This document shows positions 3,198-27,574 of a stretch of 32,000 nt of DNA, in pieces; position 1 is the first letter of the stretch; each line of letters opens with the position of its first letter. Source of the DNA: Pseudoalteromonas translucida KMM 520. Lineage in GTDB: Bacteria > Pseudomonadota > Gammaproteobacteria > Enterobacterales > Alteromonadaceae. Where the stretch lies: positions 2,610,001-2,642,000 of the forward strand of contig NZ_CP011034.1 in NCBI RefSeq assembly GCF_001465295.1. Reading direction: 5' to 3'. The position numbers and the translations under genes are program-made. The notes below the pieces were generated by a model. That model had not been told where the DNA came from. It saw only the letters and a list, made by a program, of their open reading frames with translations, and did not search any database.

Positions 3198-3701
<504 letters not shown>

Positions 3702-3708
3702 ACTAACG

Positions 3709-3729
3709 AGCGCATTACTTAAGTGCGCT
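3709..3729. terminator. weak hairpin between convergent coaD and membrane paralogue 3
   Basis: AGCGCA (3709-3714) pairs with TGCGCT (3724-3729) around a 9-nt loop that contains the stop codon of the minus-strand gene. There is no clear U-tract on either strand. Confidence 0.25.
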
Positions 3730-4239
3730 ATTCAAACTATTAACTCGCATTTTTGTTTTATTATATATCCAGGCTAACCCTAATAAATCTTTATTAATAA
3801 TCAGCACCAAAGCCATTAGTAAGTCAATTGAGATAGTACCTATAACGTATACAGCCCAAAACCACCAATAATCAATATTACCAATAATAACAGTGTCATA
3901 ATGCATGCCTAAAAATAGCATCGCATTAATGCTCATTCCTGTAATTAAATATATAAGTGCCGTAGGGATCGTAAACTTTGTTTTAATACCCCAAATTATT
4001 ACTATTAATATGGTAACAATATCAAACATAAAATAATCTAAATAGGTAACTGTTTTTAAGCTTAGTACTGCACTAGAAGAGTAAGAAACCATCATAATAA
4101 GCGATAGCTGTACCCTACTTTTATCAGGTTTATTAATACTCGACGATAAATTAAATAAAAAGGCGATTAGAAATAGCCAAGTAACAAAGGCGCTTATGTT
4201 TTCACCTAAATCAACAATAAACCTTAAAAAATCAATCAT
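3715..4239 (-). CDS. uncharacterised five-helix membrane protein, paralogue 3 of a tandem triplet
   Basis: 174 aa with about five hydrophobic segments. It shares SAF..W.FL.AF.F, M[YH][YF]D, N.[DE].W[WL].W.VY, IDLLM and [KR]D[FL]LGL with the two upstream genes. Its ATG overlaps the preceding stop (ATGATTGA, 8 nt). I recognise no family. Confidence 0.75.
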   Translation of the reverse strand: MIDFLRFIVDLGENISAFVTWLFLIAFLFNLSSSINKPDKSRVQLSLIMMVSYSSSAVLSLKTVTYLDYFMFDIVTILIVIIWGIKTKFTIPTALIYLITGMSINAMLFLGMHYDTVIIGNIDYWWFWAVYVIGTISIDLLMALVLIINKDLLGLAWIYNKTKMRVNSLNSALK

Positions 4240-4765
4240 TCGAGTTTATACCCACACAGCTATTATCATCTTTGCCTATTAATCTTAGAACAGATGATTT
4301 TAGCTTTATCAAACCCAAAAAGTCTTTATTTATAAAAAGCACTGTAATCATGAGTAAATCGATAACGTTAACGCCAATTGAATAAACACTCCAAAGCCAC
4401 CACTCGTCAATATTATTTAATACATACAAGTCGTAATACATCACTAACATTAACGACGAATTGAGCGTTAAACCAATTAAAATATAATTAATAGCGGGGC
4501 AATTCTTTATTGAAGAGGTTTTAAAGTAAACAATTAATAATACTGTAATTGTTAATAAATCATAAAGAGTAAAATTGAGGTATACATTGCTTAATATAGA
4601 AAGTACTTCACTCATGGAGTACGAGAAAAGCATAATGCCTGCAATATATAAAAGTGACTTATTTGTGTTATTTATACTTGAAGCTAAGCAAAATAAAAAA
4701 GCCATTAAAAAGCCCCATTGAATAAATGCACTTATATAATCGGCCAAAATAAAGTCTACGTACAT
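4232..4765 (-). CDS. uncharacterised five-helix membrane protein, paralogue 2 of a tandem triplet
   Basis: 177 aa with the same helix pattern and motifs (MYYD, NIDEWWLWSVY, VIDLLM, NKDFLGL). It starts 4 nt after the stop of paralogue 1 and has no SD of its own, which suggests translational coupling. Confidence 0.75.
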   Translation of the reverse strand: MYVDFILADYISAFIQWGFLMAFLFCLASSINNTNKSLLYIAGIMLFSYSMSEVLSILSNVYLNFTLYDLLTITVLLIVYFKTSSIKNCPAINYILIGLTLNSSLMLVMYYDLYVLNNIDEWWLWSVYSIGVNVIDLLMITVLFINKDFLGLIKLKSSVLRLIGKDDNSCVGINSND

Positions 4766-4769
4766 ATAA

Positions 4770-5303
4770 TTAAGGGGTATAATTTATTTTAGATTTTTTG
4801 AATAAAGACAAGGTTTTGTTTTTTAGCTTGTGTAAGCCAAGAAAGTCTCGATCGACAATTAGAGCAACTATCATTAATAGATCTATTATATTTACCGAGA
4901 AAGTATAAACATCCCAAAAAAGCCAGGGCTCTCGGTTTCCACTTACATATATATCAAAATACATACATAGGCTAAATATAGAGTTTAGTACTAACCCTAG
5001 AATGATATATAAAAAAGAACAGGTTGTTTTTTTTGTCACGAAATAAGCTAAAGCTAGTATGAAAATAGTCGCATAGTCATATAAAGCCCAATCTAAATAT
5101 ACTGAATTTCGAACTGACAACCAAGTAAAAAAGTAATCTGAGATTGTATACGAAGCCATCATGATAAATGAACTGAGCAATAAGGTTGTATTTCTTTTTA
5201 CACCTAATGAAAAAACAAAGGTGTTAAAAAAAAATGCCATCAAAAACCCCCAAGAGGCAAAAGCTGACAACGAAAACAAACCAAAAAACTCAGTTAGAAA
5301 CAT
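4770..5303 (-). CDS. uncharacterised five-helix membrane protein, paralogue 1 of a tandem triplet
   Basis: 177 aa with the same helix pattern and motifs (MYFD, NREPWLFWDVY, IIDLLM, DRDFLGL). It starts 21 nt after the stop of the small Gln-rich ORF. Confidence 0.75.
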   Translation of the reverse strand: MFLTEFFGLFSLSAFASWGFLMAFFFNTFVFSLGVKRNTTLLLSSFIMMASYTISDYFFTWLSVRNSVYLDWALYDYATIFILALAYFVTKKTTCSFLYIILGLVLNSIFSLCMYFDIYVSGNREPWLFWDVYTFSVNIIDLLMIVALIVDRDFLGLHKLKNKTLSLFKKSKINYTP

Positions 5304-5324
5304 TTAGTACCCATTTATTATCTC

Positions 5325-5516
5325 TTATTTAGGACGAACAACTATCACTCCACCACGCTGAAGTTCTGTACCGCTAGCCGCCATAGCTTCTTGAGAGAAG
5401 CTTACTGTATCAGATTGCAGGGTTTTAGGGCTAGCAGTTTGTTCCATTGCTGGCTTTAATTGTTGCGTTTTATTGTATGCTTGCATTTGTAGTTGGCTGT
5501 TAGCTGAAACTTGCAT
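5325..5516 (-). CDS. small Gln-rich soluble protein (63 aa), unknown function
   Basis: The internal ATG at 5516 is preceded by AAGGAA with a 7-nt spacer (acAAGGAAtaatcacATG). The sigma54 promoter lies inside the longer 124-aa reading of the track, so the short form is favoured. Product: MQVSANSQLQMQAYNKTQQLKPAMEQTASPKTLQSDTVSFSQEAMAASGTELQRGGVIVVRPK. It has 10 Gln, no Cys/Trp/His, and no signal peptide or TM segment. Confidence 0.55.
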   Translation of the reverse strand: MQVSANSQLQMQAYNKTQQLKPAMEQTASPKTLQSDTVSFSQEAMAASGTELQRGGVIVVRPK

Positions 5517-5654
5517 GTGATTATTCCTTGTAAGTGTTTTTGTATTATTGGCGTAATCTTGTATTACACCTTTAAAAGGGGTAATTAAATCTACCTTATA
5601 TTTAGCAGCAACCTTCTCATCAAGACTGTTACTGCATTTTACACTTGTAACAAA

Positions 5655-5670
5655 AGCAACCACTGTGCCA
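5655..5670 (-). promoter_or_regulatory. sigma54 (RpoN) -24/-12 promoter
   Basis: The minus strand reads T-TGGCAC-AGTGG-TTGCT, matching every conserved position of TGGCAC-N5-TTGCW with canonical GG/GC spacing. It lies about 75 nt downstream of the argH(A) terminator and 139 nt upstream of the ATG at 5516. Confidence 0.7.
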
Positions 5671-5741
5671 ACTTTTAATTGACAGTTAAAAATAACCATA
5701 AAACTTTATACTTATACCTAAAGTGAGTGTTTTTTACCCAT

Positions 5742-5774
5742 AAAAAAACGCACGAGGGTAACCCGTACGTTTTT
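5742..5774 (-). terminator. rho-independent terminator of argH(A)
   Basis: The minus-strand RNA is AAAAACGUAC-GGG-uua-CCC-(uc)-GUGCGUUUUUUU: a GC-containing stem with a 2-nt bulge and one G-U pair, followed by 7 U. It starts 14 nt after the argH(A) stop. Confidence 0.7.
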
Positions 5775-5787
5775 ACATCTAGGGAGT

Positions 5788-7653
5788 TTAAGCCACGAAT
5801 TTACACGGGATCTCCGCTTTATTACTTAGCTTTAAAATATATTCCATTGCTACTTCATCGCAGTTTTCTTTACGTAAACAAAGCTCACAATCTTTCATTA
5901 CTTTTTCTGGTAAGCTTTCTTTGGTACAAAAGCTAAAACGCTGTTTTTCAAAAAAATCGGGGACTCGGGTTAGCACTATTACTCTATTTAACGCCAATTT
6001 TTTGGCTTTCGCTAATAAATGCTCAACTAGCTGCCGCCCTTGTCCTGATACTGCGCTTTGTGGATCTATACCCAAAGAACGAATTTCCGCCAAACCTGTG
6101 TCGTAAATATACAGTGAAGCACACCCAGATACTTTACCGTTAATTTCGGTAACAGCAAATTCGTTAATCGAATGCACCATATCGCTTTTAGCGCGTGGTA
6201 GGTTTTCGCCTACCGTAGCCCAATGCTGAACCAGTTTAGCTATCGACTCAACATCGTCTAAATTAGCATCACGAACCGTTATTTGCTGTTTTTTTTTCGC
6301 TGCTTTAATAGCGCTGGTTACTTGTTCAATTGATGTTCCGCCAAGTGCTTGACGCGCTTTAATACAGGCGTCAATTTCTAGTACCGGATAAACATCATCT
6401 GCAAATACATCACTTACCGATTTATATTGCTCAAGCGATAAGTCTTCCAGTGTTTTACCTTCACTAATGGCCAACTGTACCAGCACACCTACAATATGGT
6501 GCCCTTCTCTAAAAGGTACGCCCTTAGCTACTAAGTAGTCAGCAAGCTCAGTTGCATTTGCATGGCCACCTTTTGCCGCTGCAAGTGTACGTTCGCCTTT
6601 TACTTTAATTCCTTTAATACACGCTTGTGCCATATGAATACAGGCAAGCCACGTTGGCATAGCGTCAAATATGCCCTCTTTATCTTCTTGCATATCTTTA
6701 TTATAAGCAAGTGGCAGTGCTTTTAGGGTCATCATCATGGCGCTAAACGCACCAAAAACACGTCCGGTTTTACCACGAATTAGTTCCAGTGCATCAGGGT
6801 TCTTTTTTTGTGGCATTAACGACGAGCCCGATGTCACATTATCTGCAAGCTCTATAAATCCGGCTTCGCCTGAGTTATAAAAAATAAGATCTTCTGACAT
6901 ACGCGATAAGTGAATCATCGAAATAGACGCACAACTTAATAGCTCTACTACAAAATCACGATCAGATACGCCATCAAGGCTATTTTTAGTGGCTCCTGTA
7001 AAGCCTAAACCTTGTGCCAATGCTTGACGATCAATAGGATAAGCCGTACCCGCTAATGCACCACTGCCCAGTGGGCAAAAGTTCATCCGCGCTTTAGCAT
7101 CTTGCAGGCGGCTTTCATCACGCTCTAGCATTTCTACGTAAGCCATACACCAGTGACTAAACAATACCGGTTGTGCACGTTGTAAATGCGTATAACCAGG
7201 TAAAATAGTCCCTAGCTCACGCTCTGCTAATGCAACAAACTCACCCTTTAACTGGGCAATAGCTTTTAAAATATGATCGGCAGTGTCGCGACACCACAAT
7301 CTAAAATCGGTGGCTACTTGGTCATTACGGCTGCGCCCTGTATGTAATTTTTTAGCTAAATCACCTACTTTTTCGATTAACGCAGCTTCAACATGTGAAT
7401 GAATATCTTCTGCGCCTGAAGTTGCTACCGCTTGTGGATCTGCTTTTACTTCTTCAAGCAGTTGGTATAATGCTGCAACTAATTCTTGGTGCTCGTCACT
7501 TGATAACACATTAACTTGCTCAAGTGCGCCAGCCCATGCAACAGAGCCTATAATATCTTGCTCTGCTAATTGATAATCGAAAGGAAGAGAGTCGTTAAAT
7601 TGCTTAAACGCCTCGTCTGGACCCGTAGAAAAACGCCCGCCCCATAATGCCAT
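5788..7653 (-). CDS. argH: bifunctional argininosuccinate lyase fused to a C-terminal GNAT (N-acetylglutamate synthase-like) domain
   Basis: 621 aa. Residues 1 to about 458 are colinear with E. coli ArgH ([46 protein letters not shown] signature). Residues from about 465 to 621 (nt about 5788-6270) form an acetyltransferase fold with the acetyl-CoA motif [12 protein letters not shown]. This argH(A) fusion is described for Moritella and other marine gammaproteobacteria. Confidence 0.93.
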
Positions 7654-7676
7654 GAAATCTCTCCAAACCCGATATT

Positions 7677-7695
7677 GCCCCTTTTAACAAGGGGC
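7677..7695 (-). other. intercistronic GC hairpin between argG and argH
   Basis: GCCCCTT (7677-7683) pairs with AAGGGGC (7689-7695): a perfect 7-bp stem with a 5-nt loop. There is no U-tract on the minus strand, so it is more likely a processing or stability element, or a partial attenuator, than a terminator. Confidence 0.45.
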
Positions 7696-7702
7696 GTAAA
7701 AA

Positions 7703-8905
7703 TTACTTTTTAGCTAATGCTTTTATTCTGCTTGAAAGCGAGAATAAACGAATAAAGCCTTCTGCGTGTGATTGGTCGTACACATCATCTTCACCAAAGG
7801 TAGCAAACGCTTCGCTGTATAAGCTGTGTGGCGACTGTTTTTGCACTGCGGTAACTTGGCCTTTGTATAGCTTAAGCACAACTTCACCTGTTGCATCTTT
7901 AGAAAGCGCTTCAGCACCAGCTAAAATAGAGTCTTTAAGTGGTGTAAACCAACGACCGTCATACACTAAATGTGCAAACTCGCCACCCAGTACTTCTTTC
8001 CACTTACGGCTTGCTTTATCAAGCACTAGTTCGTCAATGGCTTGCAGTGCCGCCATCATTACAGTACCACCTGGGGTTTCGTAACAACCGCGCGATTTCA
8101 TACCCACTAAACGGTTTTCTACAATATCAACACGACCAACACCATGCACAGAGGCAATATCGTTTAATTTAACTAAACAATCGTATGGTTTAAGCTGCTC
8201 ACCGTTTACTGCAACAACTTCACCTTCAACTACATTTAGTGTTACTAGTTCAGCTTTATCTGGCGCTTGCTCTGGAGAGTTTGTCCAGGTCCACACTTTT
8301 TCACTTGGTTGGCACCATGGATCTTCAAGTTCGCCGCCTTCGTGCGAAATATGCCATGCGTTTGCATCACGGCTATAAATTTTTGTAGCCGATGCCGAAC
8401 ATGGAATATCGCGCTCAGCTAAGTAATCTAGCAATGACTCACGGCTTGATAAATCCCACTCACGCCATGGTGCAATTACTTGTAAATCAGGGGCAAGCGC
8501 TGCAAAACACGATTCAAAACGTACTTGGTCGTTACCTTTACCAGTACAACCATGAGAAAGTGCATCGGCACCCACTTTACGCGCAATTTCTACCTGTGCT
8601 TTAGCAATAATTGGGCGCGCCATAGACGTACCTAATAAATAAGTACCTTCGTAAATTGAGCCTGTTTTTAGCGTAGGATAAATGTAATCACTTACCATTT
8701 CGTCTTTTAAGTCAACTACATAACACTCAGAAGCACCCGATGCGATAGCTTTAGCTTCTACGCCTTCAAGCTCCTCTGCACCTTGGCCAACATCGGCCAC
8801 AAAGGCAATAACTTCACAGCCGTAATTTTCTTTTAACCATGGCACAATGGCCGACGTATCAAGTCCACCTGAATAGGCTAAAACGACTTTTTTAAATGAA
8901 CTCAT
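7703..8905 (-). CDS. argG: argininosuccinate synthase
   Basis: 400 aa. The N-terminus [14 protein letters not shown] is the ATP pyrophosphatase P-loop of type I Arg[14 protein letters not shown] and [18 protein letters not shown] are also conserved. The start overlaps the argF stop (ATGA). Confidence 0.96.
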
Positions 8906-9834
8906 AGGTGTTCCTTAACAAAATTTGGATTTAATAATGTAACTAGCAGAGCGTTTTGCGCATGCATACGATTCTCGGCTTGTTGTATAATTTTTGACGC
9001 TGGACCGTCCATTACCTCAGAGGTAATTTCGAACTCACGGTGTGCCGGTTGGCAATGTAACACTGTTGTTGCACCGGTTTGCTCTAATAATGCTTTATTT
9101 AATTGATAAGGCATGTATTTTTCTTTCACTAACTCAAGTGGTGTGGTGTCGCCCATTGATACCCAAGTGTCGGCGTATACTGCGTTTGCACCAACAGCAG
9201 CTTCTACTCTGTCGCTCACCATTACTGATGCACCATTCATTGCTGCTATTTGTTCCGCTTTTTTCAGAATTTGTGAATCTGGAGAACATCCTTTAGGCGT
9301 AACGGCAACAAAGTCTGTGCCTAATGTTGCAGCAAGTAACATTAATGAATGCGTTACGTTGTTGCCCTCACCTAAATAAGCTAACTTTAATTGACTCACA
9401 TCGCCATGCACTTCTTGTAGTGTTAAAAAGTCGGCAAGTGCTTGGCAAGGATGATATAAATCACACAAGCTATTAACTACTGGCACCGATGAATACTGCG
9501 CTAATGTGGTTAATGTACAGTGCTGGTTTACGCGCGCTACAATACCGTCTGCCCATGTAGAAATATTAAGAGCAAAATCTTTTACCGACTCACGTGCACC
9601 CATTGCGCCATTTTGTTGATCTAAATACACGGCATGGCCGCCTAAGCGATTTATACCAATATCAAACGATAAACGTGTACGTAAGCTTTGCTTTTCAAAT
9701 AAAGTAACCACTGACTTACCAGCTAATACTTGGCTGTATTTTTTAGGATTTGCTTTAATATCTTGCGCTAGCTTTAATAAATTAAGTGCGCCTTGTTGGT
9801 CTAATTCTAAACCCGTTAAAAAATTCTCAAACAT
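8902..9834 (-). CDS. argF: ornithine carbamoyltransferase
   Basis: OTCase motifs are present in slightly variant form: SLRTR (canonical STRTR), HPCQ (HPTQ), DTWVSMG (DxxxSMG), HCQP (HCLP). The start is ambiguous. The track ATG at 9867 overlaps argB by 26 nt. The in-frame ATG at 9834 ([11 protein letters not shown]) lies 7 nt after the argB stop and is preferred here. Confidence 0.88.
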
Positions 9835-10609: not shown

Positions 10610-11620
10610 TTAAAACGATCCTTTTAAGCCTGTGGTATGCGCCAATCCCATTGATAAATTAATACACTGCAAAGCTTGCCCTGCAGCACCTTTTAATAAA
10701 TTATCAATGGCAGCTATAACAATTAACTGTGTGCCTTGTTGCTGCCAGCCAATATCTACATATGGCTGTTTAGCTACGCCTTTAATTGAGGGGATTTTAT
10801 CGCCCAGCAAACGAATTAACGGCTCATCGGCAAGTACTTGGTACGCTTGTGTTACTTGCTCAATGGTGATATTAGGTTTTAATTGCACATAAATAGTTTC
10901 TAAAATACCACGTGGGAAGTTACCTAAATGCGGTGTAAATAAAACATCGTGACCAAGGTGTTGCTCTATTTCAGGGCCATGACGATGATTAAATAAACCA
11001 TAAGGGGCAAGCGATACTTCGCAAAAATGAGTACCAATGCTAGCTTTACGTCCTGCGCCGGTTACACCCGATACCGCATTAATTATAATTGTTTGCTCAG
11101 TTAATAAGTCGGCCTGCTGCAAAGGCTTAAGCGCATTAAGCGCAGCCGTAGGGTAACAACCAGCTACAGCTACTAATTGCGCCGCGGCAATAGCATCGCT
11201 ATTCCACTCAGCCAAACCATAAGCAGCTTGATCTAATAACTCTGGATGTTGATGCTCAAAGCCATAATAAGTAACGTAGTCGTCATTGCTCGCAAGGCGA
11301 TACCCACCAGATAAATCAAATACCTTTTTACCCATGGCTAAAAAACGCGGCGCTAAATCTACGCTTACTTTATGATCGGTACATAAGCACACGTAATCGG
11401 CACTGTTTTCAATATCGCTAAAAGCAGATTCACTAAGAGGTAGTAAAGGCTGATCGAGTAGCCCTAAGTGTTCGGGGTATAAATCACTCAGCAGTTTATT
11501 TTTATCTAAGCTACCTTGAGATACATAACAGCCAGTTAAAATTAGTTTAGGGTGCTTAGCAACTAAACTTGCTAGTTCTGCGCCGCTATAACCGCTTGCG
11601 CCAATAATCACTACATTCAT
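10610..11620 (-). CDS. argC: N-acetyl-gamma-glutamyl-phosphate reductase
   Basis: 336 aa, colinear with E. coli ArgC: IIGASGYSGAEL, the active-site GCYPTAA, HRHGPEIEQHLG, FTPHLGNFPRGILETI, DNLLKGAAGQALQC. Confidence 0.96.
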   Translation of the reverse strand: MNVVIIGASGYSGAELASLVAKHPKLILTGCYVSQGSLDKNKLLSDLYPEHLGLLDQPLLPLSESAFSDIENSADYVCLCTDHKVSVDLAPRFLAMGKKVFDLSGGYRLASNDDYVTYYGFEHQHPELLDQAAYGLAEWNSDAIAAAQLVAVAGCYPTAALNALKPLQQADLLTEQTIIINAVSGVTGAGRKASIGTHFCEVSLAPYGLFNHRHGPEIEQHLGHDVLFTPHLGNFPRGILETIYVQLKPNITIEQVTQAYQVLADEPLIRLLGDKIPSIKGVAKQPYVDIGWQQQGTQLIVIAAIDNLLKGAAGQALQCINLSMGLAHTTGLKGSF

Positions 11621-11706
11621 TGTTTACTCGTTATTTAAAATTATTACTACTTATCCATGTTGTTCGCTTAAACTAGCTCTGAGGCTAATTAAGACTTTAA
11701 TTTATT

Positions 11707-11724
11707 AATGAATGTTGATTATCG
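11707..11724. promoter_or_regulatory. possible second (weaker) ArgR operator half-site
   Basis: AATGAATGTTGATTATCG has TGAAT intact, and ATTAT versus ATTCA matches 3 of 5. It lies in the argC-proximal part of the divergent control region. Confidence 0.3.
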
Positions 11725-11770
11725 TCGTATTATTTTCATGGCGCTACTTTTAAAATATTTATGCTTAAAA

Positions 11771-11788
11771 AGTGAATTGATATTCATC
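11771..11788. promoter_or_regulatory. ARG box (ArgR operator)
   Basis: AGTGAATTGATATTCATC matches the 18-bp consensus wnTGAATwwwwATTCAnw at all ten core positions. It sits in the argC/argE divergent intergenic region. Confidence 0.7.
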
Positions 11789-11805
11789 ATAAATACTTTT
11801 ATATT
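11777..11805 (+). promoter_or_regulatory. candidate sigma70 promoter of argE, overlapped by the ARG box
   Basis: TTGATA (11777-11782), a 17-nt spacer, then TATATT (11800-11805), about 39 nt upstream of the argE ATG at 11844. The -35 element lies inside the ARG box, which is the classic repression geometry. Confidence 0.5.
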
Positions 11806-11843
11806 GTTATGCAATTAAATTGATTACTTATTTTGGATTTTTT

Positions 11844-12998
11844 ATGTCTTTACCTTCATTTATTTCTATGTACCAACAATTAATTGCAGCACCTTCTATT
11901 AGTGCCATTGAAGATAGCCTGTGTATGAGTAATAAAAATGTTATTGAATTACTGGCACAATGGTGTGAAAGCTTAGGCTTTAGCTGTGAAATAATTGAAT
12001 TAGAAGGCGGCAAAGGTCGCTATAATTTATTAGCTAAACGCGGTAAAGGCGATGGTGGATTAATGCTCGCTGGCCATACCGATACAGTGCCATTTGACGA
12101 TAGCCGCTGGAATCATAATCCATTTAAATTGACCGAGCACAACAACAAACTATATGGCTTAGGTAGTATTGATATGAAAGGCTTTTTTGCTTTTGTACTG
12201 CAAGCTATTAGTGAACTTGATGAAAAACAGCAAACTCAGCCTATTTTGATCTTAGCCACCGCCGATGAAGAAACAACAATGGCCGGTGCTCAACAAATTT
12301 GTAAACATCCAAATTTAAAACCGGATCGCTGTATAATTGGCGAACCCACTGATATGACTCCGGTATTTACACATAAAGGACATATGAGCACCGCAATTAG
12401 AGTAGTCGGACGCTCAGGCCATAGCTCAGATCCCGAACGTGGTGTTAACGCCATCGAAGTAATGCACAAAGTGATTACAAAACTACTGATCTTAAAAGAA
12501 CAGTTAAAGCATAAATATTCAATAGAGCACTTTGAAATACCCTATCCAACCTTAAATTTTGGTAATATTCATGGCGGCGACAACGCGAACCGAATTTGTG
12601 GTTGCTGCGAAATGCATATAGATATGCGCCCATTACCGGGCTTAAGCATGCAAGAACTGCAAATGTTAGTACTTGATGCAACTCACGAAATAAACCAGCA
12701 ATACCCAAATGCCGTAAGCGTAATTGATTTACACGAACCAATCCCGGCATTTACTGGTAGCACCGATAGCGCTTTGGTTAAACTAGCCGAAAAAATAGCG
12801 GGGCAAAAAGCGATAGCGGTAAACTACTGTACTGAAGCGCCATTTATTCAACAGCTTGGTTGTGAAACCATAGTAATGGGCCCCGGCTCTATAAACCAAG
12901 CGCACCAACCTGATGAGTTTTTAGCAATGGAAAAAATTAAGCCTTCACAGCAAATTATCACTAATATAATTAAAGCGAGTTGCTTTAGCTTTTCTTAA
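11844..12998 (+). CDS. argE: acetylornithine deacetylase
   Basis: Colinear with E. coli ArgE from [20 protein letters not shown] (E. coli LPPFIEIYRALIATPSIS), plus [52 protein letters not shown]. The track start at 11820 is a TTG adding 8 residues not seen in ArgE; ATG 11844 is preferred. Confidence 0.93.
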
Positions 12999-13061: not shown

Positions 13062-14687
13062 TTACATATACTTACTTAAGTACTTTTTAAATACCGGATC
13101 TGTTTTAGCCAACTCTTTCTGTTCTGCTAAAATTTCTTTTAAAATAACGCCTGATGTAAGTGGGTTAGCAAGTACTACCCTAAATACCACTGTGGGCTGA
13201 TTATCGTATTGAGTAGGCGTTAAACGCGTACGTGATACAAATGATCGCCCTGATTCACGTTGCCGTTTTTGCATACTTGCAGTAAAGCGATTAAGTGAGG
13301 CAAAAATATCAATCCGTGTTTGCGGATCAGCATCTGCAATTGCCTGCTTTATTTGCTTAGGCACATAACGATACGTTAATAAGCACAGCTCTGGCTCTGA
13401 GATCAGCTCAAAATCTTCATCTGCTTTAATTAAATTAGCAAAGTAATGGGCTTTTTTAATACTACGATCGATTAGCATTTCGTAGCCTTTACGGCCAATA
13501 ACACGTAAGCAAGCATGTACTAACATTGCCATACCCGGGCGGCTGCCCTCAAGTGTATGGCTACCTAAATCTTTTGAACCTTTACGTAAAATATACTCTG
13601 CATGATGTTCAATTGCATCGGTAGCGGTTGGATCTTTAAACAACACCAGGCCAGCTCCCATAGGAACATACATTTGTTTGTGTGCATCAATGGTAATTGA
13701 GTCTGCGCGCTCAACACCTTTGAGTAAATGGCGATGGGTATTAGATAACAAAGTTGCCCCGCCCCATGCAGCGTCAACATGAAAGTGGCAATTAATGTCT
13801 TGTGCTAAATCTGCCATCGCTTCAAGGGGATCGATATTACCGGTTTCTGTGGTACCCGCGACTCCAATAATGGCCATTACTTTAATACCTTGCGCTTCAA
13901 GCTCTAAGGCTTTTTCGCGCATGGCGTTAACATCAACTTTATTGTTTTCGCATGTTTTAATACCCACTAAGTTTTCACGACCAATTCCTAATAAATCAGC
14001 CGCTTTACCTAACGAATAATGGCCACGCTCAGAAATTAAAATAGCCAACCCTTTATAGCCGTAATGCATCATACCGGCAATTAAGCCTTGTGCGCCTATA
14101 CCTTTAAAGTTGCCATCGGGTTTTAATAACCTATTTCGCGCAATCCAAAGCGCCGTAATATTAGCTACAGTACCGCCTGAGCAAAATGCACCTAACGATG
14201 TTTTTGCACTGTGCATCCATTTAGCATAAAACTCGTCTTGTTGCCCGTACGCTAAATGATGCATCATTCCAAGCACTTGGCGCTCAAGTGGAGTAAAAGC
14301 TTTAGAGGTTTCTATTTTTACTAGGTTTTGATTTAGCCCTACCATTAACTTTGATAATGGTAGTAAAAAATGAGGCAAAGCAGAAGTCATATGGCCAATA
14401 AAGCTAGGCGCTGCGGTATGCACAGAGTGCGCAACCAACTGCTCCATTATATCTTGCGCATAAGCAGATACAAACGTTGGATCTTCTGGGATCATCGCCG
14501 ACTGAAAGTCTTTTTCAATTTCGTGTAATGGTTTTTCAATTGCCGCAATGTTTTCGTTTAAAAAACCTGCTAAATTACTCGATATTTCAAGCTCTATTTT
14601 GCTTAAAGTTGAGTCTGGCGCTTCAGGTACAGTAAATATACGCTTAAGGCTTTCTTTAGAGGCGACGGCAAAACGCTTTTGATCCAT
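13062..14687 (-). CDS. group II PLP-dependent amino-acid decarboxylase; possibly the PanP-type pyridoxal-dependent aspartate 1-decarboxylase
   Basis: 541 aa. PLP-lysine motif SITIDAHKQMYVPMGAGLVLF, plus GGTVANITALW and HVDAAWGG, typical of the DDC/GAD/HDC fold-type I family. The size and a marine gammaproteobacterial context fit the proposed PanP family, which displaces PanD non-orthologously. Substrate is not provable from sequence. Confidence 0.85.
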   Translation of the reverse strand: MDQKRFAVASKESLKRIFTVPEAPDSTLSKIELEISSNLAGFLNENIAAIEKPLHEIEKDFQSAMIPEDPTFVSAYAQDIMEQLVAHSVHTAAPSFIGHMTSALPHFLLPLSKLMVGLNQNLVKIETSKAFTPLERQVLGMMHHLAYGQQDEFYAKWMHSAKTSLGAFCSGGTVANITALWIARNRLLKPDGNFKGIGAQGLIAGMMHYGYKGLAILISERGHYSLGKAADLLGIGRENLVGIKTCENNKVDVNAMREKALELEAQGIKVMAIIGVAGTTETGNIDPLEAMADLAQDINCHFHVDAAWGGATLLSNTHRHLLKGVERADSITIDAHKQMYVPMGAGLVLFKDPTATDAIEHHAEYILRKGSKDLGSHTLEGSRPGMAMLVHACLRVIGRKGYEMLIDRSIKKAHYFANLIKADEDFELISEPELCLLTYRYVPKQIKQAIADADPQTRIDIFASLNRFTASMQKRQRESGRSFVSRTRLTPTQYDNQPTVVFRVVLANPLTSGVILKEILAEQKELAKTDPVFKKYLSKYM

Positions 14688-14696
14688 CTTAATACC

Positions 14697-14738
14697 TAGT
14701 GTGTGGCTAAAACGCCTGCTGCTCTATTAAACACACTA
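14697..14738 (-). promoter_or_regulatory. 5' UTR hairpin abutting the decarboxylase ribosome-binding site
   Basis: TAGTGTGT (14697-14704) and ACACACTA (14731-14738) form a perfect 8-bp inverted repeat with a 26-nt spacer. On the minus-strand mRNA the proximal arm ends at the A of the only SD-like AGG, 7 nt before the ATG. Confidence 0.35.
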
Positions 14739-14902
14739 AATTGAGTGTGCTATTTTAGTAACAGGGTTTTTAATAATTGCGCTAACTTTACTGCAATATT
14801 AAGAAAATGTCTCGCTTAAAGCCATAAAAACGCTAAATGACATGACAAATAATATTAATTTTGACCATTTTTTATCTTTTTAATTCAAAATCAATTAAGT
14901 CA

Positions 14903-14930
14903 TTGGGCATTTGTTTTTTTTGCGTATAAT
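14903..14930 (+). promoter_or_regulatory. candidate sigma70 promoter of the GGDEF-EAL gene
   Basis: TTGGGC (14903-14908), a 16-nt spacer, then a perfect TATAAT (14925-14930), 27 nt upstream of the ATG at 14957. That ATG has an AGGGA SD. Confidence 0.5.
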
Positions 14931-14956
14931 TAATTTAACAATAAAAAGGGAATTAT

Positions 14957-16825
14957 ATGCTACAAGGAAAACTAAGAATAAATGGGTTAATTAGCGCTTT
15001 TATGCTGTTTTTAATCAGTTTAATTATCTGTGTTTATTATACTTATAGCACTATTCGCAGTGATGTAATTAACGCCCTTGATAATCGCCTTATTAATGCA
15101 GCCACCAGCGTTAAATATATTTTGGGCGATGACTATCACAGTAAAATAAATAAAACCCAAACTATTAGCTTTGCAACTTACGAAAGTAAAAGTAAGCAGC
15201 TTTCTGAGCTTGCACAAGCACTCGATATTGCTTACGTTTATTCTATGGTGCTAATTAATGGCAAGGTTCATTTTAGCGCTTCTAGCTACACCCAAGAAGA
15301 TCAAAATAGTGGCAAGGTAACCCAGTTTTTAGATTTATACCCAGAGGCAACTAAGGCTAATATTGGTGCCTTTTTATCTACTGAGCCTGTTTTTGAAATA
15401 TCGAGTGATCAATGGGGCGACTTTAAAACTATTTTTATTCCGCATATTGATAAAAATGGCATTACATATTTAACTGCTGCCGATATAAGCCTTAAAAGTA
15501 TCAATAATAAGTTAGCGCAAAGCGCCTCAACATCGGCTGTTTTAGGCGGCTTTTTTTTAGTTATTATTATATTGTTGCTAATTATGTATAACTTCGCGAC
15601 TAAACGCGCCGCCATGAGAGACTCTGGTAGCGGTTTTGCTAATCATATCGCGCTTGAAAAATATTTTTTAAACAGCCCTGTTCACCATATGCAAATGGCC
15701 ATAGTTTGGGTGAACGAAATTGAAAATATAAACCGCTTTTACGGCACTAAAGTGGGTGACAAAGTAATGAAAAAATTACTGATACACTTTAAAAAGCACA
15801 GCAATATAAATTATCGTATTTACCGTGTAGCAACCAATAAATTAGTGTTACTAACGCCCAAAGAAACACCATACGAAGAACTAAGTAATTTAATTCAATC
15901 GTATAATTTTAATACGCCCTTTTTAACCAACCCTTTTATTTACATTACTTTATGTGCAGGTATTGCCCGAGGAAATAAGTCGTTGCTGCTAAAAAATGCC
16001 CATATTGCGGCTTTACAGGCAAAACAAGGTAACCTTAGTGTTGTTAATTACTCTGAGGCTATAAATGACTCAAAGTCGCTGTATTTATATAATTTAGAAA
16101 TAGCAAAAGAAGTACGTGAAGCGTTTGAACAAAAGCGCGTTGTGCCCTATTTTCAGGCTGTTATTGATATAGAGTCTAAACAAACACTACACTACGAGTG
16201 CACACCACGAATTGTGACTCCACAGGGCGAAATTTTAAAACCCGATGCATTTTCAAATACCGTAATACGCTTGCGTATGGATGGCTTATTAACCCGTACT
16301 TTATTTTCGCAGTGCCTTAGCCGCTTTCGTAAAACACAAATTAGTTGGAGTTTAAATATTACTATTGAAGATATATTAGACCCTAGCATAAATGAATACA
16401 TTGCTTACGAATTACAGCGCTATCCGCACCCTGAAAATATCACTTTAGTTTTATTTGAACCACAAGTTATCGCCAATTATTCAAGCGTAAGGGCATTTAT
16501 AACTATGGTTAAAAGTAAGGGAATTAAGGTGATGATAAACAGTTTTGGCAATGACTTTGCAAATACACTAAATATTTTAAAATTGGAAATTGACGCAATA
16601 AAGTTAGATGGCATGCTAATAAAGCAAATAGTTAATGATGAGAACACGGCATTATTTGTTGATTACACAGCCAATTTTGCAAAGCAGCAAAATATTCAAC
16701 TAATTGCCTCTATGGTAGAGAACAAAGCTATAGCTACGGCGCTCAAAAAAGTAAATGTGACGCTAATGCAGGGTAATTTCATTGCCCACCCAGCGCCACA
16801 TGTTAATCCATTATTTGAGCAGTAA
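14957..16825 (+). CDS. membrane sensor with a periplasmic domain and degenerate GGDEF and EAL domains
   Basis: 622 aa. TM1 is at about residues 10-30, a periplasmic segment of about 165 aa follows, and TM2 is at about 195-215. The GGDEF-fold region has ATNKL (nt 15830-15844) where GGDEF should be. The EAL-fold region has ECT (nt 16196-16204) for EAL and NSFGNDF for DDFGTGY, while retaining the FEP, KLDG, VEN and QGNF equivalents. Confidence 0.85.
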   Translation: MLQGKLRINGLISAFMLFLISLIICVYYTYSTIRSDVINALDNRLINAATSVKYILGDDYHSKINKTQTISFATYESKSKQLSELAQALDIAYVYSMVLINGKVHFSASSYTQEDQNSGKVTQFLDLYPEATKANIGAFLSTEPVFEISSDQWGDFKTIFIPHIDKNGITYLTAADISLKSINNKLAQSASTSAVLGGFFLVIIILLLIMYNFATKRAAMRDSGSGFANHIALEKYFLNSPVHHMQMAIVWVNEIENINRFYGTKVGDKVMKKLLIHFKKHSNINYRIYRVATNKLVLLTPKETPYEELSNLIQSYNFNTPFLTNPFIYITLCAGIARGNKSLLLKNAHIAALQAKQGNLSVVNYSEAINDSKSLYLYNLEIAKEVREAFEQKRVVPYFQAVIDIESKQTLHYECTPRIVTPQGEILKPDAFSNTVIRLRMDGLLTRTLFSQCLSRFRKTQISWSLNITIEDILDPSINEYIAYELQRYPHPENITLVLFEPQVIANYSSVRAFITMVKSKGIKVMINSFGNDFANTLNILKLEIDAIKLDGMLIKQIVNDENTALFVDYTANFAKQQNIQLIASMVENKAIATALKKVNVTLMQGNFIAHPAPHVNPLFEQ

Positions 16826-25962: not shown

Positions 25963-26385
25963 ATGACACTTACAACTCCAGGATTACTTTTTCCGGCTAT
26001 TTCATTGTTATTACTTGCCTATACAAACCGATTTTTAGTGTTAGCACAATTAATTAGAGAATTAAACGCCCGAGAAGGTGAATCAATTCGCCCGGTTGTT
26101 GTTGCGCAAATAACTAATTTAAGAAAACGTATAAAACTTATAAGAACCATGCAGGTATATGGGGTTGTATCTTTTTTACTATGCACACTTTCCATGTTTG
26201 CGTTATTTATAGAGCTCAATACTACTGGGATTATTTTATTTGGCGTTAGCCTTACTTGCTTAAGTTTATCGTTATTAACTTCGTTATTTGAAATTCACAT
26301 TTCTTGCGATGCCATTGAAATAGAACTGCAAAGCATTGAAAATAAACCGCTAAGTACCCGGGTTAGCCGCAACTTTATTGAATAA
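25963..26385 (+). CDS. DUF2721-family membrane protein
   Basis: 140 aa. The N-terminus PGLLFPAISLLLLAYTNRFLVLAQLIRELN is characteristic of DUF2721. It has three hydrophobic helices and an AGGAA SD. Confidence 0.7.
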   Translation: MTLTTPGLLFPAISLLLLAYTNRFLVLAQLIRELNAREGESIRPVVVAQITNLRKRIKLIRTMQVYGVVSFLLCTLSMFALFIELNTTGIILFGVSLTCLSLSLLTSLFEIHISCDAIEIELQSIENKPLSTRVSRNFIE

Positions 26386-26603
26386 AAGTTTATTGTTTCA
26401 AGTAATAATTTTACGCAGTGGCTTTTTTGCTCTTTGAGACAAGGCTACTTTATATGTTAATTGCATAATAAAAGCTTAAAACACATAACAAACTATTAGT
26501 TATTAACCTAAAGGATAATACTATTTAACAATTTCACTCTTTAATTAATACTAAAAGAGGGATATGCTAATTGAGATTTATTATAAATTTACAATCACAT
26601 TTA

Positions 26604-26643
26604 AATATTACTTATTAATTTTAATAGATTAATAAGTAATATT
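26604..26643. repeat. perfect 16-bp inverted repeat (candidate operator) upstream of the LysR gene
   Basis: AATATTACTTATTAAT (26604-26619), 8-nt spacer tttaatag, ATTAATAAGTAATATT (26628-26643). The arms are exact reverse complements. The centre is about 66 nt upstream of the GTG at 26690. Confidence 0.85.
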
Positions 26644-26689
26644 ACTATGTTCGCGTATATGCGACTTACTTATAAAAAGGGACTATAAA

Positions 26690-27574
26690 GTGAGATTTGA
26701 ACAACTGGAACAATTCATAGCACTTGGCATGTTACGCCACTTCAGACAAGCCGCAGAACAAACTAAAATAAGCACGTCAGCGCTTACACGTAGCATTCAA
26801 ACTCTTGAAGAAGAAATAGGCTATGAGTTAGTTAAGCGCTCTACTCGCTCGGTACACCTTACTGATGCGGGCGAACTTTTTCTTGATTATGCTAAAAATA
26901 CGCTTAGTGAGTTGGCATTAACTAAACAGCGTATTTTTCAATCTATTAATGGCACTATTGAAAAAAAGCTAATTATTGGCTACACCAACAAAGCAAGCAG
27001 TGTTGTACCTATTTCATGTGGGCAATTTTTAAATCAATATCCACATATTAAAATTGAAATGCAACTTCAAGATAAACACGAACTTTCGCGTAAACTGCAA
27101 CAGGGCGAAATAGATATTAGTGTTTATTCGCAAGCCATAAACAGTATTGGTAGTGATATTCACTTACCTGATCAGCTAATTCTATTTGTTTCTAAAAATC
27201 ATCCGCTTGCGCATAAAACCGACATTAGCAAACAAGAGCTAGATCACTACCCTATGTTTGGCTGTTTTTCACAATCTAAACCCGTACAGCTTATGCTTAA
27301 TGAAGCCATTGATGGATTAAACAAATCATCTAGTATTAAAGTTGGCAGCATAGAACAAGTAATGGCAGGCCTTGAAAAGTCAGATCATTTTGCAATTGCG
27401 GGCATTGAGCACACCAATGCCATTGCTGAAAATAGTAATCTTATTCAGTTAAAAACCAATAAAGACTTAAGCCGTGAGCAACTTATAGTACAAACAAGTC
27501 AAAAAATTGAAGTGGGTGAGCACATAGAGCACTTGCTATCACTGATAAAAAAAATGGCTATGACGATAAACTAA
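26690..27574 (+). CDS. LysR-family transcriptional regulator
   Basis: 294 aa. N-terminal wHTH: LEQFIALGMLRHFRQAAEQTKISTSALTRSIQTLEEEIGYELVKRSTRSVHLTDAG. C-terminal LysR substrate-binding fold. GTG start with an AGGGA SD 7 nt upstream. Confidence 0.88.
   Translation: MRFEQLEQFIALGMLRHFRQAAEQTKISTSALTRSIQTLEEEIGYELVKRSTRSVHLTDAGELFLDYAKNTLSELALTKQRIFQSINGTIEKKLIIGYTNKASSVVPISCGQFLNQYPHIKIEMQLQDKHELSRKLQQGEIDISVYSQAINSIGSDIHLPDQLILFVSKNHPLAHKTDISKQELDHYPMFGCFSQSKPVQLMLNEAIDGLNKSSSIKVGSIEQVMAGLEKSDHFAIAGIEHTNAIAENSNLIQLKTNKDLSREQLIVQTSQKIEVGEHIEHLLSLIKKMAMTIN

Follow-up and report, generated by a model that had tools for sequence, protein, structure and literature searches.

The window analysed here is a stretch of 32,000 nucleotides (nt) from Pseudoalteromonas translucida KMM 520 (contig NZ_CP011034.1, positions 2,610,001 to 2,642,000 of the forward strand), and the locus in question is a block of four minus-strand genes located between argH(A) and the convergent coaD. 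A small gene, whose product consists of a conserved leader and a short tail, is followed by three genes for five-helix membrane proteins, named M1, M2 and M3, the first of which is 100% identical to a Pseudoalteromonas translucida protein (Table 1). Comparison with related loci shows that the tail and the membrane genes compose a hypervariable allelic cassette, which is exchanged between strains and species.

An earlier note on this DNA had proposed that four tightly packed open reading frames form one operon behind a sigma-54 promoter, and all four were recovered at exactly the coordinates it gave, separated by a 21-nt gap, a 4-nt gap and, between M2 and M3, an 8-nt overlap (ATGATTGA). With hundreds of homologues, the reading frames are more than chance ones. 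The three membrane proteins are indeed paralogs, with pairwise identities of 38-45% (45% for M1 and M2). The intrinsic terminator of argH(A) was found again as a hairpin followed by a U-run that folds at -16.4 kcal/mol (z = -3.4), and this hairpin is kept in most related loci. Within the block, a consensus scan yields one site, located in M1 and weak (5 bp), where chance alone would give 2.1, in agreement with the proposed lack of an internal terminator. The block is thus one tightly packed four-gene unit, the promoter of which is confirmed by cross-species comparison (see below). No enhancer-binding protein, transporter or mobility gene adjoins it, as had been noted before. At the distal end, the stop codon of M3 lies 13 nt from the stop codon of coaD (window 3702-3714) with no terminator between them, hence the two transcripts probably overlap. 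A longer reading of the small gene, of 124 residues from an ATG at 5699, was discarded, because it would include the promoter and because the homologues begin with MQ[VI].

Table 1. Features of the locus and of its prophage relatives (positions refer to the window unless a locus is named).
Feature	Position	Strand	Remarks
Sigma-54 type -24/-12 promoter, TGGCACAGTGGTTGCT	5655..5670	minus	exact consensus match
Structured mRNA 5' leader	5517..5654	minus	two/three hairpins, then conserved AAGGA ribosome-binding site
Small gene	5325-5516	minus	63 residues; open reading frame call
Conserved leader part of the small protein, residues 1-54 (MQVSANSQLQMQAY...TLQSDTVSFSQEA...ELQR)	5355..5516	minus	ends in invariant Arg54
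Gly-Gly junction (residues 55-56), tail VIVVRPK (residues 57-63) and stop	5325..5354	minus	hypervariable
M1, position-1 five-helix membrane protein (M-A)	4770-5303	minus	177 residues
M2, second membrane paralog	4232-4765	minus	177 residues; cluster E
M3, last membrane paralog	3715-4239	minus	174 residues; cluster B
coaD	3207-3701	plus	convergent with M3
argH(A) intrinsic terminator	5742..5774	minus	upstream boundary of the unit; context
argH(A)	5788-7653	minus	upstream neighbour of the block
Prophage peptide and membrane gene pairs	L059 2466-3397 (Algicola sagamiensis); L065 3748-4831; L066 275-1358; L064 161-1442		

A survey in which one genome per species was scanned returned 54 loci (labelled L in what follows, as are further loci), all of them from Pseudoalteromonas, barring a few short contigs in metagenome bins of foreign taxa (L002 and L013 in 'Bacteroidota bacterium', L010 and L025 in 'bacterium Bpl_23'), which probably reflects mis-binning. 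With few exceptions, the loci that include their flanks share one gene order, in which argH(A) is followed by the small gene, the membrane paralogs and coaD, and beyond the membrane array the convergent coaD is followed by a tetR-family gene.

The promoter predicted by the earlier note is the sole exact match to TGGCACN5TTGCW in the window. A GG-N10-GC element is located 107-142 nt upstream of the ATG of the small gene in 43 of the 45 testable Pseudoalteromonas loci, its -24/-12 boxes reading TGGCAC-N5-TTGCT in the translucida/haloplanktis group, TGGATCG-N4-TTGCT in most other loci and TGGCACGCGTTCTGCA in a third clade. The mRNA leader that follows extends ~125 nt past the inferred start site, and in the window it folds at -29.6 kcal/mol (z = -3.5). 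Its hairpins, which L012, L016, L023 and others show at ~5650-5785, differ in sequence between clades and keep their pairing, through compensatory changes and sense-strand G-U pairs; for a second clade, which shows two hairpins, the changes are compensatory in 5 of 9 predicted pairs. They could be a regulatory or stabilising RNA element, and an Rfam search of the window and the leader region matched no family.

Concerning the regulator, no activator gene was found at the locus and no convincing candidate for an enhancer or upstream activating site near the promoter, where a CTGGT-N3-ACCAG-like motif and a TGATCAAAAAGATCA palindrome are both clade-specific. In one clade the promoter abuts the stop codon of argH(A), so for want of upstream room an enhancer would fall inside argH(A) or downstream. 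In the clade with TGGATCG boxes (L012, L016, L019, L023, L024, L029, L030, L032 and L052), the DNA 15-35 nt upstream of the -24 box includes (T)GATCA-N5-6-GATC(A), a palindrome that together with the box amounts to three GATC sites in ~45 nt. A regulator might bind there, or it could be a point of Dam-methylation-sensitive control, perhaps related to phase variation; the translucida/haloplanktis clade has GTGTCAAAAAAAGT at this position instead.

The small protein has 200-odd homologues, all of them in Pseudoalteromonas and annotated as 'orphan' or 'hypothetical'. Their leader, made of the first ~54 residues, follows the consensus MQVSxNSQLQMQAY ... TLQSDTV[ST][FIL]SxEA ... [LI]QR, with residues M1, Q2, Y14, T32, S41 and R54 invariant in the alignments, and is 100% identical between conspecific strains that have different tails, the synonymous divergence (dS) of the leader being 0. 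Arg54 is usually followed by Gly-Gly or Gly-Gly-Gly and then by a tail of 7-13 residues, laid out as 2-4 hydrophobic residues, a stretch rich in Pro, Gly, Ser or Asp, and basic residues. The tail is where the variation accumulates: there are 93 different tails among 141 homologues, and up to 8 behind one identical 44-residue leader. One homologue, for example, is identical to the window protein in its first 59 residues and ends with VIVDPSKPK, not with VIVVRPK. The tails come as discrete types that recur across species with different leaders, among them IIVLDPDKRP[NK], IIIDPDKRP[QK], AVFPNKKKEE and AM[LF]PPSKKEQ.

Three species carry the end of the small protein as tandem repeats. The unit xxxxL[NKQ]RGGGIIKT occurs nine times in L047, LQRGGGVIKT at least 11 times in L051 and RGGGVIIT three times in L040 (GAEPMRGGGVIIT). 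The copies in L047 match only ~80% at the DNA level, and in L047 and L051 synonymous differences are found at every codon position of the RGGG[VI]IKT unit, the sole amino-acid change being in the terminal unit of L051 (RGGGVIKV). Near-identical residues despite many synonymous codon differences show that each RGGG-hydrophobic unit is kept by selection at the amino-acid level, as happens in precursors that hold several copies of a short peptide. The idea of a ubiquitin- or Pup-like 'RGG' protein was rejected, since the repeats span only a tail unit of 12-15 residues and not the protein body.

The M1 structure modelled with AlphaFold2 (AF2) shows five transmembrane (TM) helices and a C-terminal amphipathic helix, with a mean predicted local distance difference test (pLDDT) of 78 and a predicted template modelling score of 0.74. 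A manual count on this model places 11 Lys or Arg residues in loop 1, loop 3 and the C-terminus and 2 in the N-terminus, loop 2 and loop 4 which, following the positive-inside rule, predicts an N-out/C-in topology. Residues invariant across the paralogs include S51, Y52, T79, Y99, G103, N107, D117, N123, W127, W130, Y133, D141 and D153, and S55, Y69 and D76 are nearly so; by the predicted topology, several of the conserved residues would be located in the periplasmic half of the helices. An intramembrane activity of the prepilin-peptidase or aspartyl-protease kind, suggested by the Y-D motif in TM3 and D141 in TM5, was considered and rejected, as no such model matched and as D76 and D141 are not retained in the prophage homologues described below. 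The family is narrow: an exhaustive profile search of 1.84 billion representative proteins gave only 114 matches, and those that could be traced are all from Pseudoalteromonas or Algicola (Algicola sagamiensis).

Each genome harbors between one and eight intact membrane genes. Except in a few of the most divergent loci, the genes at position 1 are orthologues that make up a single subfamily, cluster A or, in the deep clade, cluster H, and the later positions belong to other subfamilies (E/F, C, B/D and G), of which B or G can be expanded up to fourfold. Frameshifted or truncated paralog fragments are present in several genomes (L003 6519-7026; L006 6199-6553; L018 6992-8593; L009 9130-9603; L011 7570-8070; also L028, L031 and L037), showing that the array gains and loses genes over time.

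The hypervariable nature of the cassette is best seen between close relatives. In L012 and L037 the ArgHA proteins are 99% identical and the DNA, from argH(A) over the promoter and the mRNA leader to the part that encodes the peptide leader, is ~90-98% identical. Where the tail begins, identity falls to 30-70%, and it remains at a low level over all the membrane genes until the last paralog ends, where it recovers. The same is observed for L056 and L057, two metagenomic strains conspecific with the window, whose flanks are 96-100% identical to it. In L057 the divergent block extends from the tail over M1 and takes in most of M2, a recombination breakpoint lying close to the 3' end of M2, and M3 is 99% identical; in L056 the block includes the tail and all three membrane genes, M3 being only 48% identical. 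Overall, strains whose flanks are ~97-100% identical show inside the block a DNA identity of only 40-80% from the leader/tail junction on.

Divergence estimates between the window and L057 set the age of these alleles against that of the strains. In argH(A), argG, coaD and tetR dS amounts to 0.10-0.16, and in the peptide leader it is 0, whereas in M1 it is saturated (~2.7) with a nonsynonymous divergence (dN) of 0.19, that is a dN/dS of ~0.07; M2 and M3 have dS values of 0.68 and 0.047, respectively. Hence, the alleles of the cassette are far older than the strains that carry them, and each of them is under purifying selection. The alleles are moved by recombination, for which the homology arms are provided by the conserved leader on one side and the distal genes on the other.

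The first membrane paralog, M-A, follows the tail type and not the species. Between L012 and L037 the peptide leaders are 98% identical, the tails are different and M-A is only 49% identical; M-A of L037 is 69-71% identical to that of L032 and L038, which share its tail, at an ArgHA identity of only 87-88%, and three other tail types show the same tracking. In a partial Mantel test over 42 loci with 5,000 permutations, the correlation between M-A and tail given ArgHA identity is r = 0.36 (p = 2e-4), as compared to 0.17 for leader identity. When two loci share a tail, their M-A identity is 68-100% (median 75), against a median of 51 for pairs with unrelated tails, and not a single pair combines an M-A identity of at least 88% with a tail identity below 70%. 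Identical tails are thus kept while M-A diverges by 25-30%, which indicates that the tail itself is constrained within a type.

Distant relatives of the peptide and membrane gene pair are found in prophages. In Algicola sagamiensis a P2-like element contains a membrane homologue (hhalign E = 3e-9), which is placed between its integrase and CI repressor and preceded by a gene for a 53-residue product, MKKVILFVLLSVSVSVQA/EDKDKK...PLIGGGVVANPNEKKAS, which ends with GGGVVANPNEKKAS. From its sequence, this product can be read as consisting of a Sec signal peptide and, after it, a tail of the form GGG-hydrophobic-Pro/Asn-Lys-Lys that resembles the Pseudoalteromonas RGGGAVFPNKKKEE, and given the signal peptide at least this version of the peptide is predicted to be exported. 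At the same integrase-repressor position, the element of L065 and L066, whose backbone is related to Pseudoalteromonas phages ACA1 and C5a, encodes an 83-residue peptide (...DQVTLSDEAIAAA...HAGGGVYVPPPTDKPE) that aligns to the peptide profile with an hhalign E of 2e-5, together with a membrane homologue (E = 1e-11). The two-gene module is therefore older than the chromosomal locus and able to travel on temperate phages. The prophage pairs are followed by a third small single-helix protein of 86-128 residues with a charged cytoplasmic domain, which is absent from the chromosomal Pseudoalteromonas locus, and no exact sigma-54 consensus was seen by eye upstream of their small genes.

As for the origin of the chromosomal block, the earlier note had proposed a foreign insertion, which is not supported, since the same position between argH(A) and coaD is occupied genus-wide. 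The four local GC counts behind that proposal are exact (26.7, 31.7, 40.0 and 50.0%), and the block has 31.2% GC as compared to 38.8% for the window. At third codon positions (GC3), however, the block genes show 0.28-0.32, within the range of the window (mean 0.333, sd 0.023; coaD itself has 0.23). It is at first positions that the difference is found, with ~0.30 in the block against ~0.5 in neighbouring genes, and the low GC is thus due to codon positions 1 and 2, i.e. to a membrane-protein composition rich in F, I, L, Y, N and K. A tblastn search of 72,556 plasmids and 50,697 phage records found no copy of the locus, and no tRNA or other RNA family was detected. With a position fixed across the genus, a normal GC3, no tRNA border and no plasmid or phage copy, a genomic island or recent acquisition was rejected. 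Presence in all relatives had been taken beforehand as the mark of an ordinary core locus; presence is indeed widespread, but a locus this hypervariable is not ordinary.

Some side observations concern the flanks. In many species (L012, L016, L019, L020, L023 and others; L047 6550-7962, L045 9766-11226) a gene for a Wzi-like outer-membrane protein of ~470 residues, related to capsule assembly and encoded on the opposite strand, separates the array from coaD; the clade of the window does not have it. In the uncultured Pseudoalteromonas L045 two near-identical transposase-like genes of 371 residues, each followed by a 99-residue gene, are inserted downstream of the single membrane gene (6754-9699). 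On the other side, argH is joined to an acetyltransferase (argA-like) domain in the window and most species, giving 621 residues, and is unfused (457 residues) in P. luteoviolacea (L050 4151-5524), whose downstream neighbours also differ, with an S9-type peptidase-like gene in place of coaD. Other low-GC stretches of the window (0.30-0.32) are 11501-12000, which sits between divergent arg genes, 14501-15000 and 26001-27000.

The statement that the proteins belong to no known family stands after searches of Pfam, NCBIfam, PADLOC and PHROGs with all four proteins, a PDB sequence search and Foldseek. PADLOC gave 0 matches and PHROGs a single one at E = 0.097, with unannotated function, and Pfam at E = 10 on 63 membrane and 18 peptide homologues gave nothing consistent; a UPF0014 match in 10 of the 63, at E of 0.07 or worse, was considered noise. 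The profile had 0 matches at E = 10 against PDB sequences, and Foldseek with the M1 model reached at best E = 0.6 and a TM-score of 0.29 in the PDB, and only uncharacterised proteins at E of 0.0075 or worse in the viral database BFVD. A literature search on the locus, on RpoN regulons and on peptide systems in Pseudoalteromonas found nothing relevant.

Membership in several peptide-related families was considered as well. None of the 63 membrane homologues matches AgrB in Pfam at E = 10, and their invariant residues include neither His nor Cys. [quoted passage not shown] An ATP-binding cassette (ABC) exporter with a C39 peptidase is absent from the argH(A)-coaD interval, to which this search was restricted; in most loci this interval contains only the small gene and the membrane paralogs, with Wzi-like or transposase genes in some. 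Relative to the double-glycine leader consensus, L-S-x-x-E-L-x-x-I-x-G-G, the window protein, S-Q-E-A-M ... E-L-Q-R-G-G, has ~5 extra residues, some alleles have other residues in place of the Gly-Gly, variants in L050 and L061 (..VISTNETLGKISGG, ..VILSESVLGKVSGARGGGG) come near to it, and the NCBIfam and Pfam models for such leaders gave no match.

We propose that the cassette is a pherotype-like module, in which a processed peptide is recognised by its cognate membrane partner M-A, a reading that we regard as plausible if somewhat short of probable. It fits best with the leader/core organization, the Arg-Gly-Gly junction, the repeats, the co-varying M-A, the ancient alleles, the breakpoints at the junction and the exported relative. 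The corresponding mechanism would start with the cleavage of a pro-peptide next to the Arg-Gly-Gly junction, the repeated units of some species giving several copies of the peptide. The cognate M-A would then bind the released C-terminal peptide, probably through those conserved polar residues that the predicted topology places in the periplasmic helix halves (Y69, D76, D117, N123, W127 and W130). In this way the pair would act like a pherotype, with a strain-specific signal or identity tag and a membrane receptor or processing partner, and the extra paralogs would broaden or modulate recognition. We infer this processing, binding, localisation and output from the anatomy, conservation, polymorphism and co-variation that are directly observed. 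A more speculative extension, to which we give only a small chance, is that the whole constitutes a peptide-based strain-identity system (pherotype or kin recognition) under sigma-54 control, with a new five-helix receptor family and a leader-RGG-tail pro-peptide, the phage relatives being a Gram-negative counterpart of phage peptide communication.

Several observations weigh against such a module. There is no exporter, protease, kinase or other output gene in the operon, and for the membrane proteins neither a catalytic or signalling motif nor a structurally related protein could be recognised. The window peptide lacks a signal peptide, and its AF2 model is of low confidence (pLDDT 58), with helices at 3-27 and 42-55 and a coil tail. 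The Gly-Gly pair is not strictly invariant, since RGN, RN, RQ, RAG and RSG variants exist, and the cleavage next to it is deduced solely from conservation and repeats. Tail and M-A being only 21 nt apart, linkage contributes to their co-variation and could give it alone. L056 and L057 carry the same peptide yet differ in M3, which is hence exchanged independently of the tail, so that the coupling is strongest for position 1. Finally, no expression or phenotype data for the locus were found in the literature.

The chief rivals of this reading are toxin/immunity and phage exclusion. Many of the same features would be expected of a peptide toxin with its immunity protein, bacteriocin- or microcin-like or a mini polymorphic toxin, where the tail would be toxic and delivered to neighbours, M-A would confer immunity and the extra paralogs would protect from the tails of other strains. 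In its favour, the locus has the structural gene ahead of a small polytopic membrane protein and joins a conserved N-terminal portion to a variable C-terminal one, the recombination breakpoints falling where the two meet; its alleles are ancient, as frequency-dependent selection would predict, its tandem arrays show birth-and-death evolution with pseudogenes, and copies sit in prophages as accessory genes. We nevertheless consider this reading unlikely: an unmodified tail of 7-13 residues is very small for a toxin and is linked to no modification enzyme or exporter, and the locus is genus-wide and fixed in place. The role of orphan immunity genes for the extra paralogs is also weakened, because these constitute subfamilies of their own (E/F, C, B/D and G) rather than position-1 alleles of other strains, and no orphan tail fragments lie beside them.

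Alternatively, the small protein may stay inside the cell and regulate or chaperone a hetero-oligomeric membrane complex, such as a channel or a psp-like envelope-stress device, the variation being neutral or hitch-hiking and the correlation of tail and M-A a product of linkage alone. The saturated dS of M1 at a dN/dS of ~0.07, next to flanks with a dS of ~0.1, speaks of old, maintained alleles and not of drift, and identical tails retained across species as M-A diverges, repeat units selected at the amino-acid level and an Algicola homologue predicted from its signal peptide to be exported by Sec also argue against it. This makes an intracellular regulator quite unlikely, even if it would account for the missing signal peptide of the window protein, the tight translational coupling of the genes, the conserved Asp, Asn and Ser inside helices and the position-specific paralog subfamilies, like subunits of one complex, and even if sigma-54 promoters often serve stress and membrane functions.

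Very doubtful is a function in phage exclusion or defence, by which the entry of phage DNA or another step at the inner membrane would be stopped by the membrane proteins with the peptide as an accessory, and phage pressure would drive the diversification of the locus. The position of the homologous pairs between integrase and repressor of P2-like prophages, a typical site for accessory genes that benefit the lysogen, suggested it, as did hypervariability, copy-number change and recombination. Yet it leaves unexplained the discrete tail types matched to M-A and the purifying selection on the repeats, PADLOC and PHROGs show no family match, a sigma-54 promoter conserved genus-wide is unusual for defence genes, and alleles are exchanged at a fixed core site in place of the presence/absence variation typical of defence islands. 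A gene of the flagellar hierarchy, with an FlgM- or flagellin-like export substrate and an FlrC/FleQ-dependent sigma-54 promoter, is highly improbable: Pseudoalteromonas flagellar genes do use FleQ/FlrBC with sigma-54 (PMC11882849), a resemblance to flagellin and FlgM is seen by eye in the N-terminus, which reads MQINGTNSLNATQ... in L047 and L049, and in the motif D-x-V-[ST]-L-S-x-E-A, and clades with no upstream enhancer room are compatible with a downstream enhancer, but 18 members searched at E = 10 gave no Pfam match to FlgM, flagellin or YjfB, only 4 residues could be aligned with E. coli FlgM by hhalign (E = 0.45), no flagellar gene is near the locus and the hypervariability is left unexplained.

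A whole, ecologically important marine genus has at a fixed core site a cassette with the population-genetic signature of pherotype systems, namely ancient alleles, their exchange across species and a variable core behind a conserved leader, and neither component of the cassette has an annotated relative. Pherotype and identity systems based on ribosomal peptides are textbook biology in Gram-positive bacteria and, to our knowledge, almost unknown in Gram-negative ones. If the tail and M-A were a cognate pair, they would define a new family of receptors or processing proteins and offer at least 93 peptide specificities as a natural library, along with a simple strain-typing marker for Pseudoalteromonas, with a possible tie to temperate-phage decision-making.

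Among known systems, the staphylococcal agr locus (AgrD/AgrB/AgrC) shares with the cassette a small pro-peptide with a short hypervariable mature part, an adjoining, co-varying polytopic protein of ~180 residues, specificity groups that are discrete and ancient, and recombination boundaries on either side of the variable segment. The cassette differs from it in that its membrane proteins have no AgrB Pfam match or invariant His or Cys, in having no histidine kinase or response regulator, and in that its variable part is C-terminal rather than internal; moreover, it is found in a Gram-negative host, behind a sigma-54 type promoter and with 1-8 membrane paralogs. Bacillus comQXP and streptococcal comC/comD and blpC/blpH likewise combine a conserved leader with a variable C-terminal peptide, and their polymorphism spans the peptide and its membrane partner, with sharp breakpoints and alleles shared across species. 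Unlike them, the cassette includes no isoprenyl transferase, kinase or linked C39-peptidase ABC exporter, and the window leader is off the canonical double-glycine spacing, only P. luteoviolacea-type variants being near.

Class II bacteriocin or microcin-immunity loci and loci of the contact-dependent inhibition type also combine a conserved N-terminal part with a variable C-terminal one across a demarcating motif, and have an adjoining cognate small membrane protein and paralog arrays, but the tail of the cassette is too short for a toxin domain, no exporter or delivery machinery is linked to it and its paralogs are not orphan cognates. For Proteus mirabilis IdsD/IdsE no homology was found, the proteins of the cassette are far smaller and there is no type VI secretion context; the similarity is in strain identity residing in co-varying regions of a transferred protein and an inner-membrane protein. 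The Phr, PapR and AimP peptides (the last from arbitrium) of Bacillus and its phages, to which no homology was detected, act on cytoplasmic TPR receptors in place of a five-helix membrane protein, and the window peptide has no signal peptide. The parallel is in the layout: these are pro-peptides of 40-60 residues whose last 5-10 residues are active and determine specificity and, as is the case for aimP, the Algicola homologue with its predicted Sec signal peptide adjoins the lysogeny module of a temperate phage.

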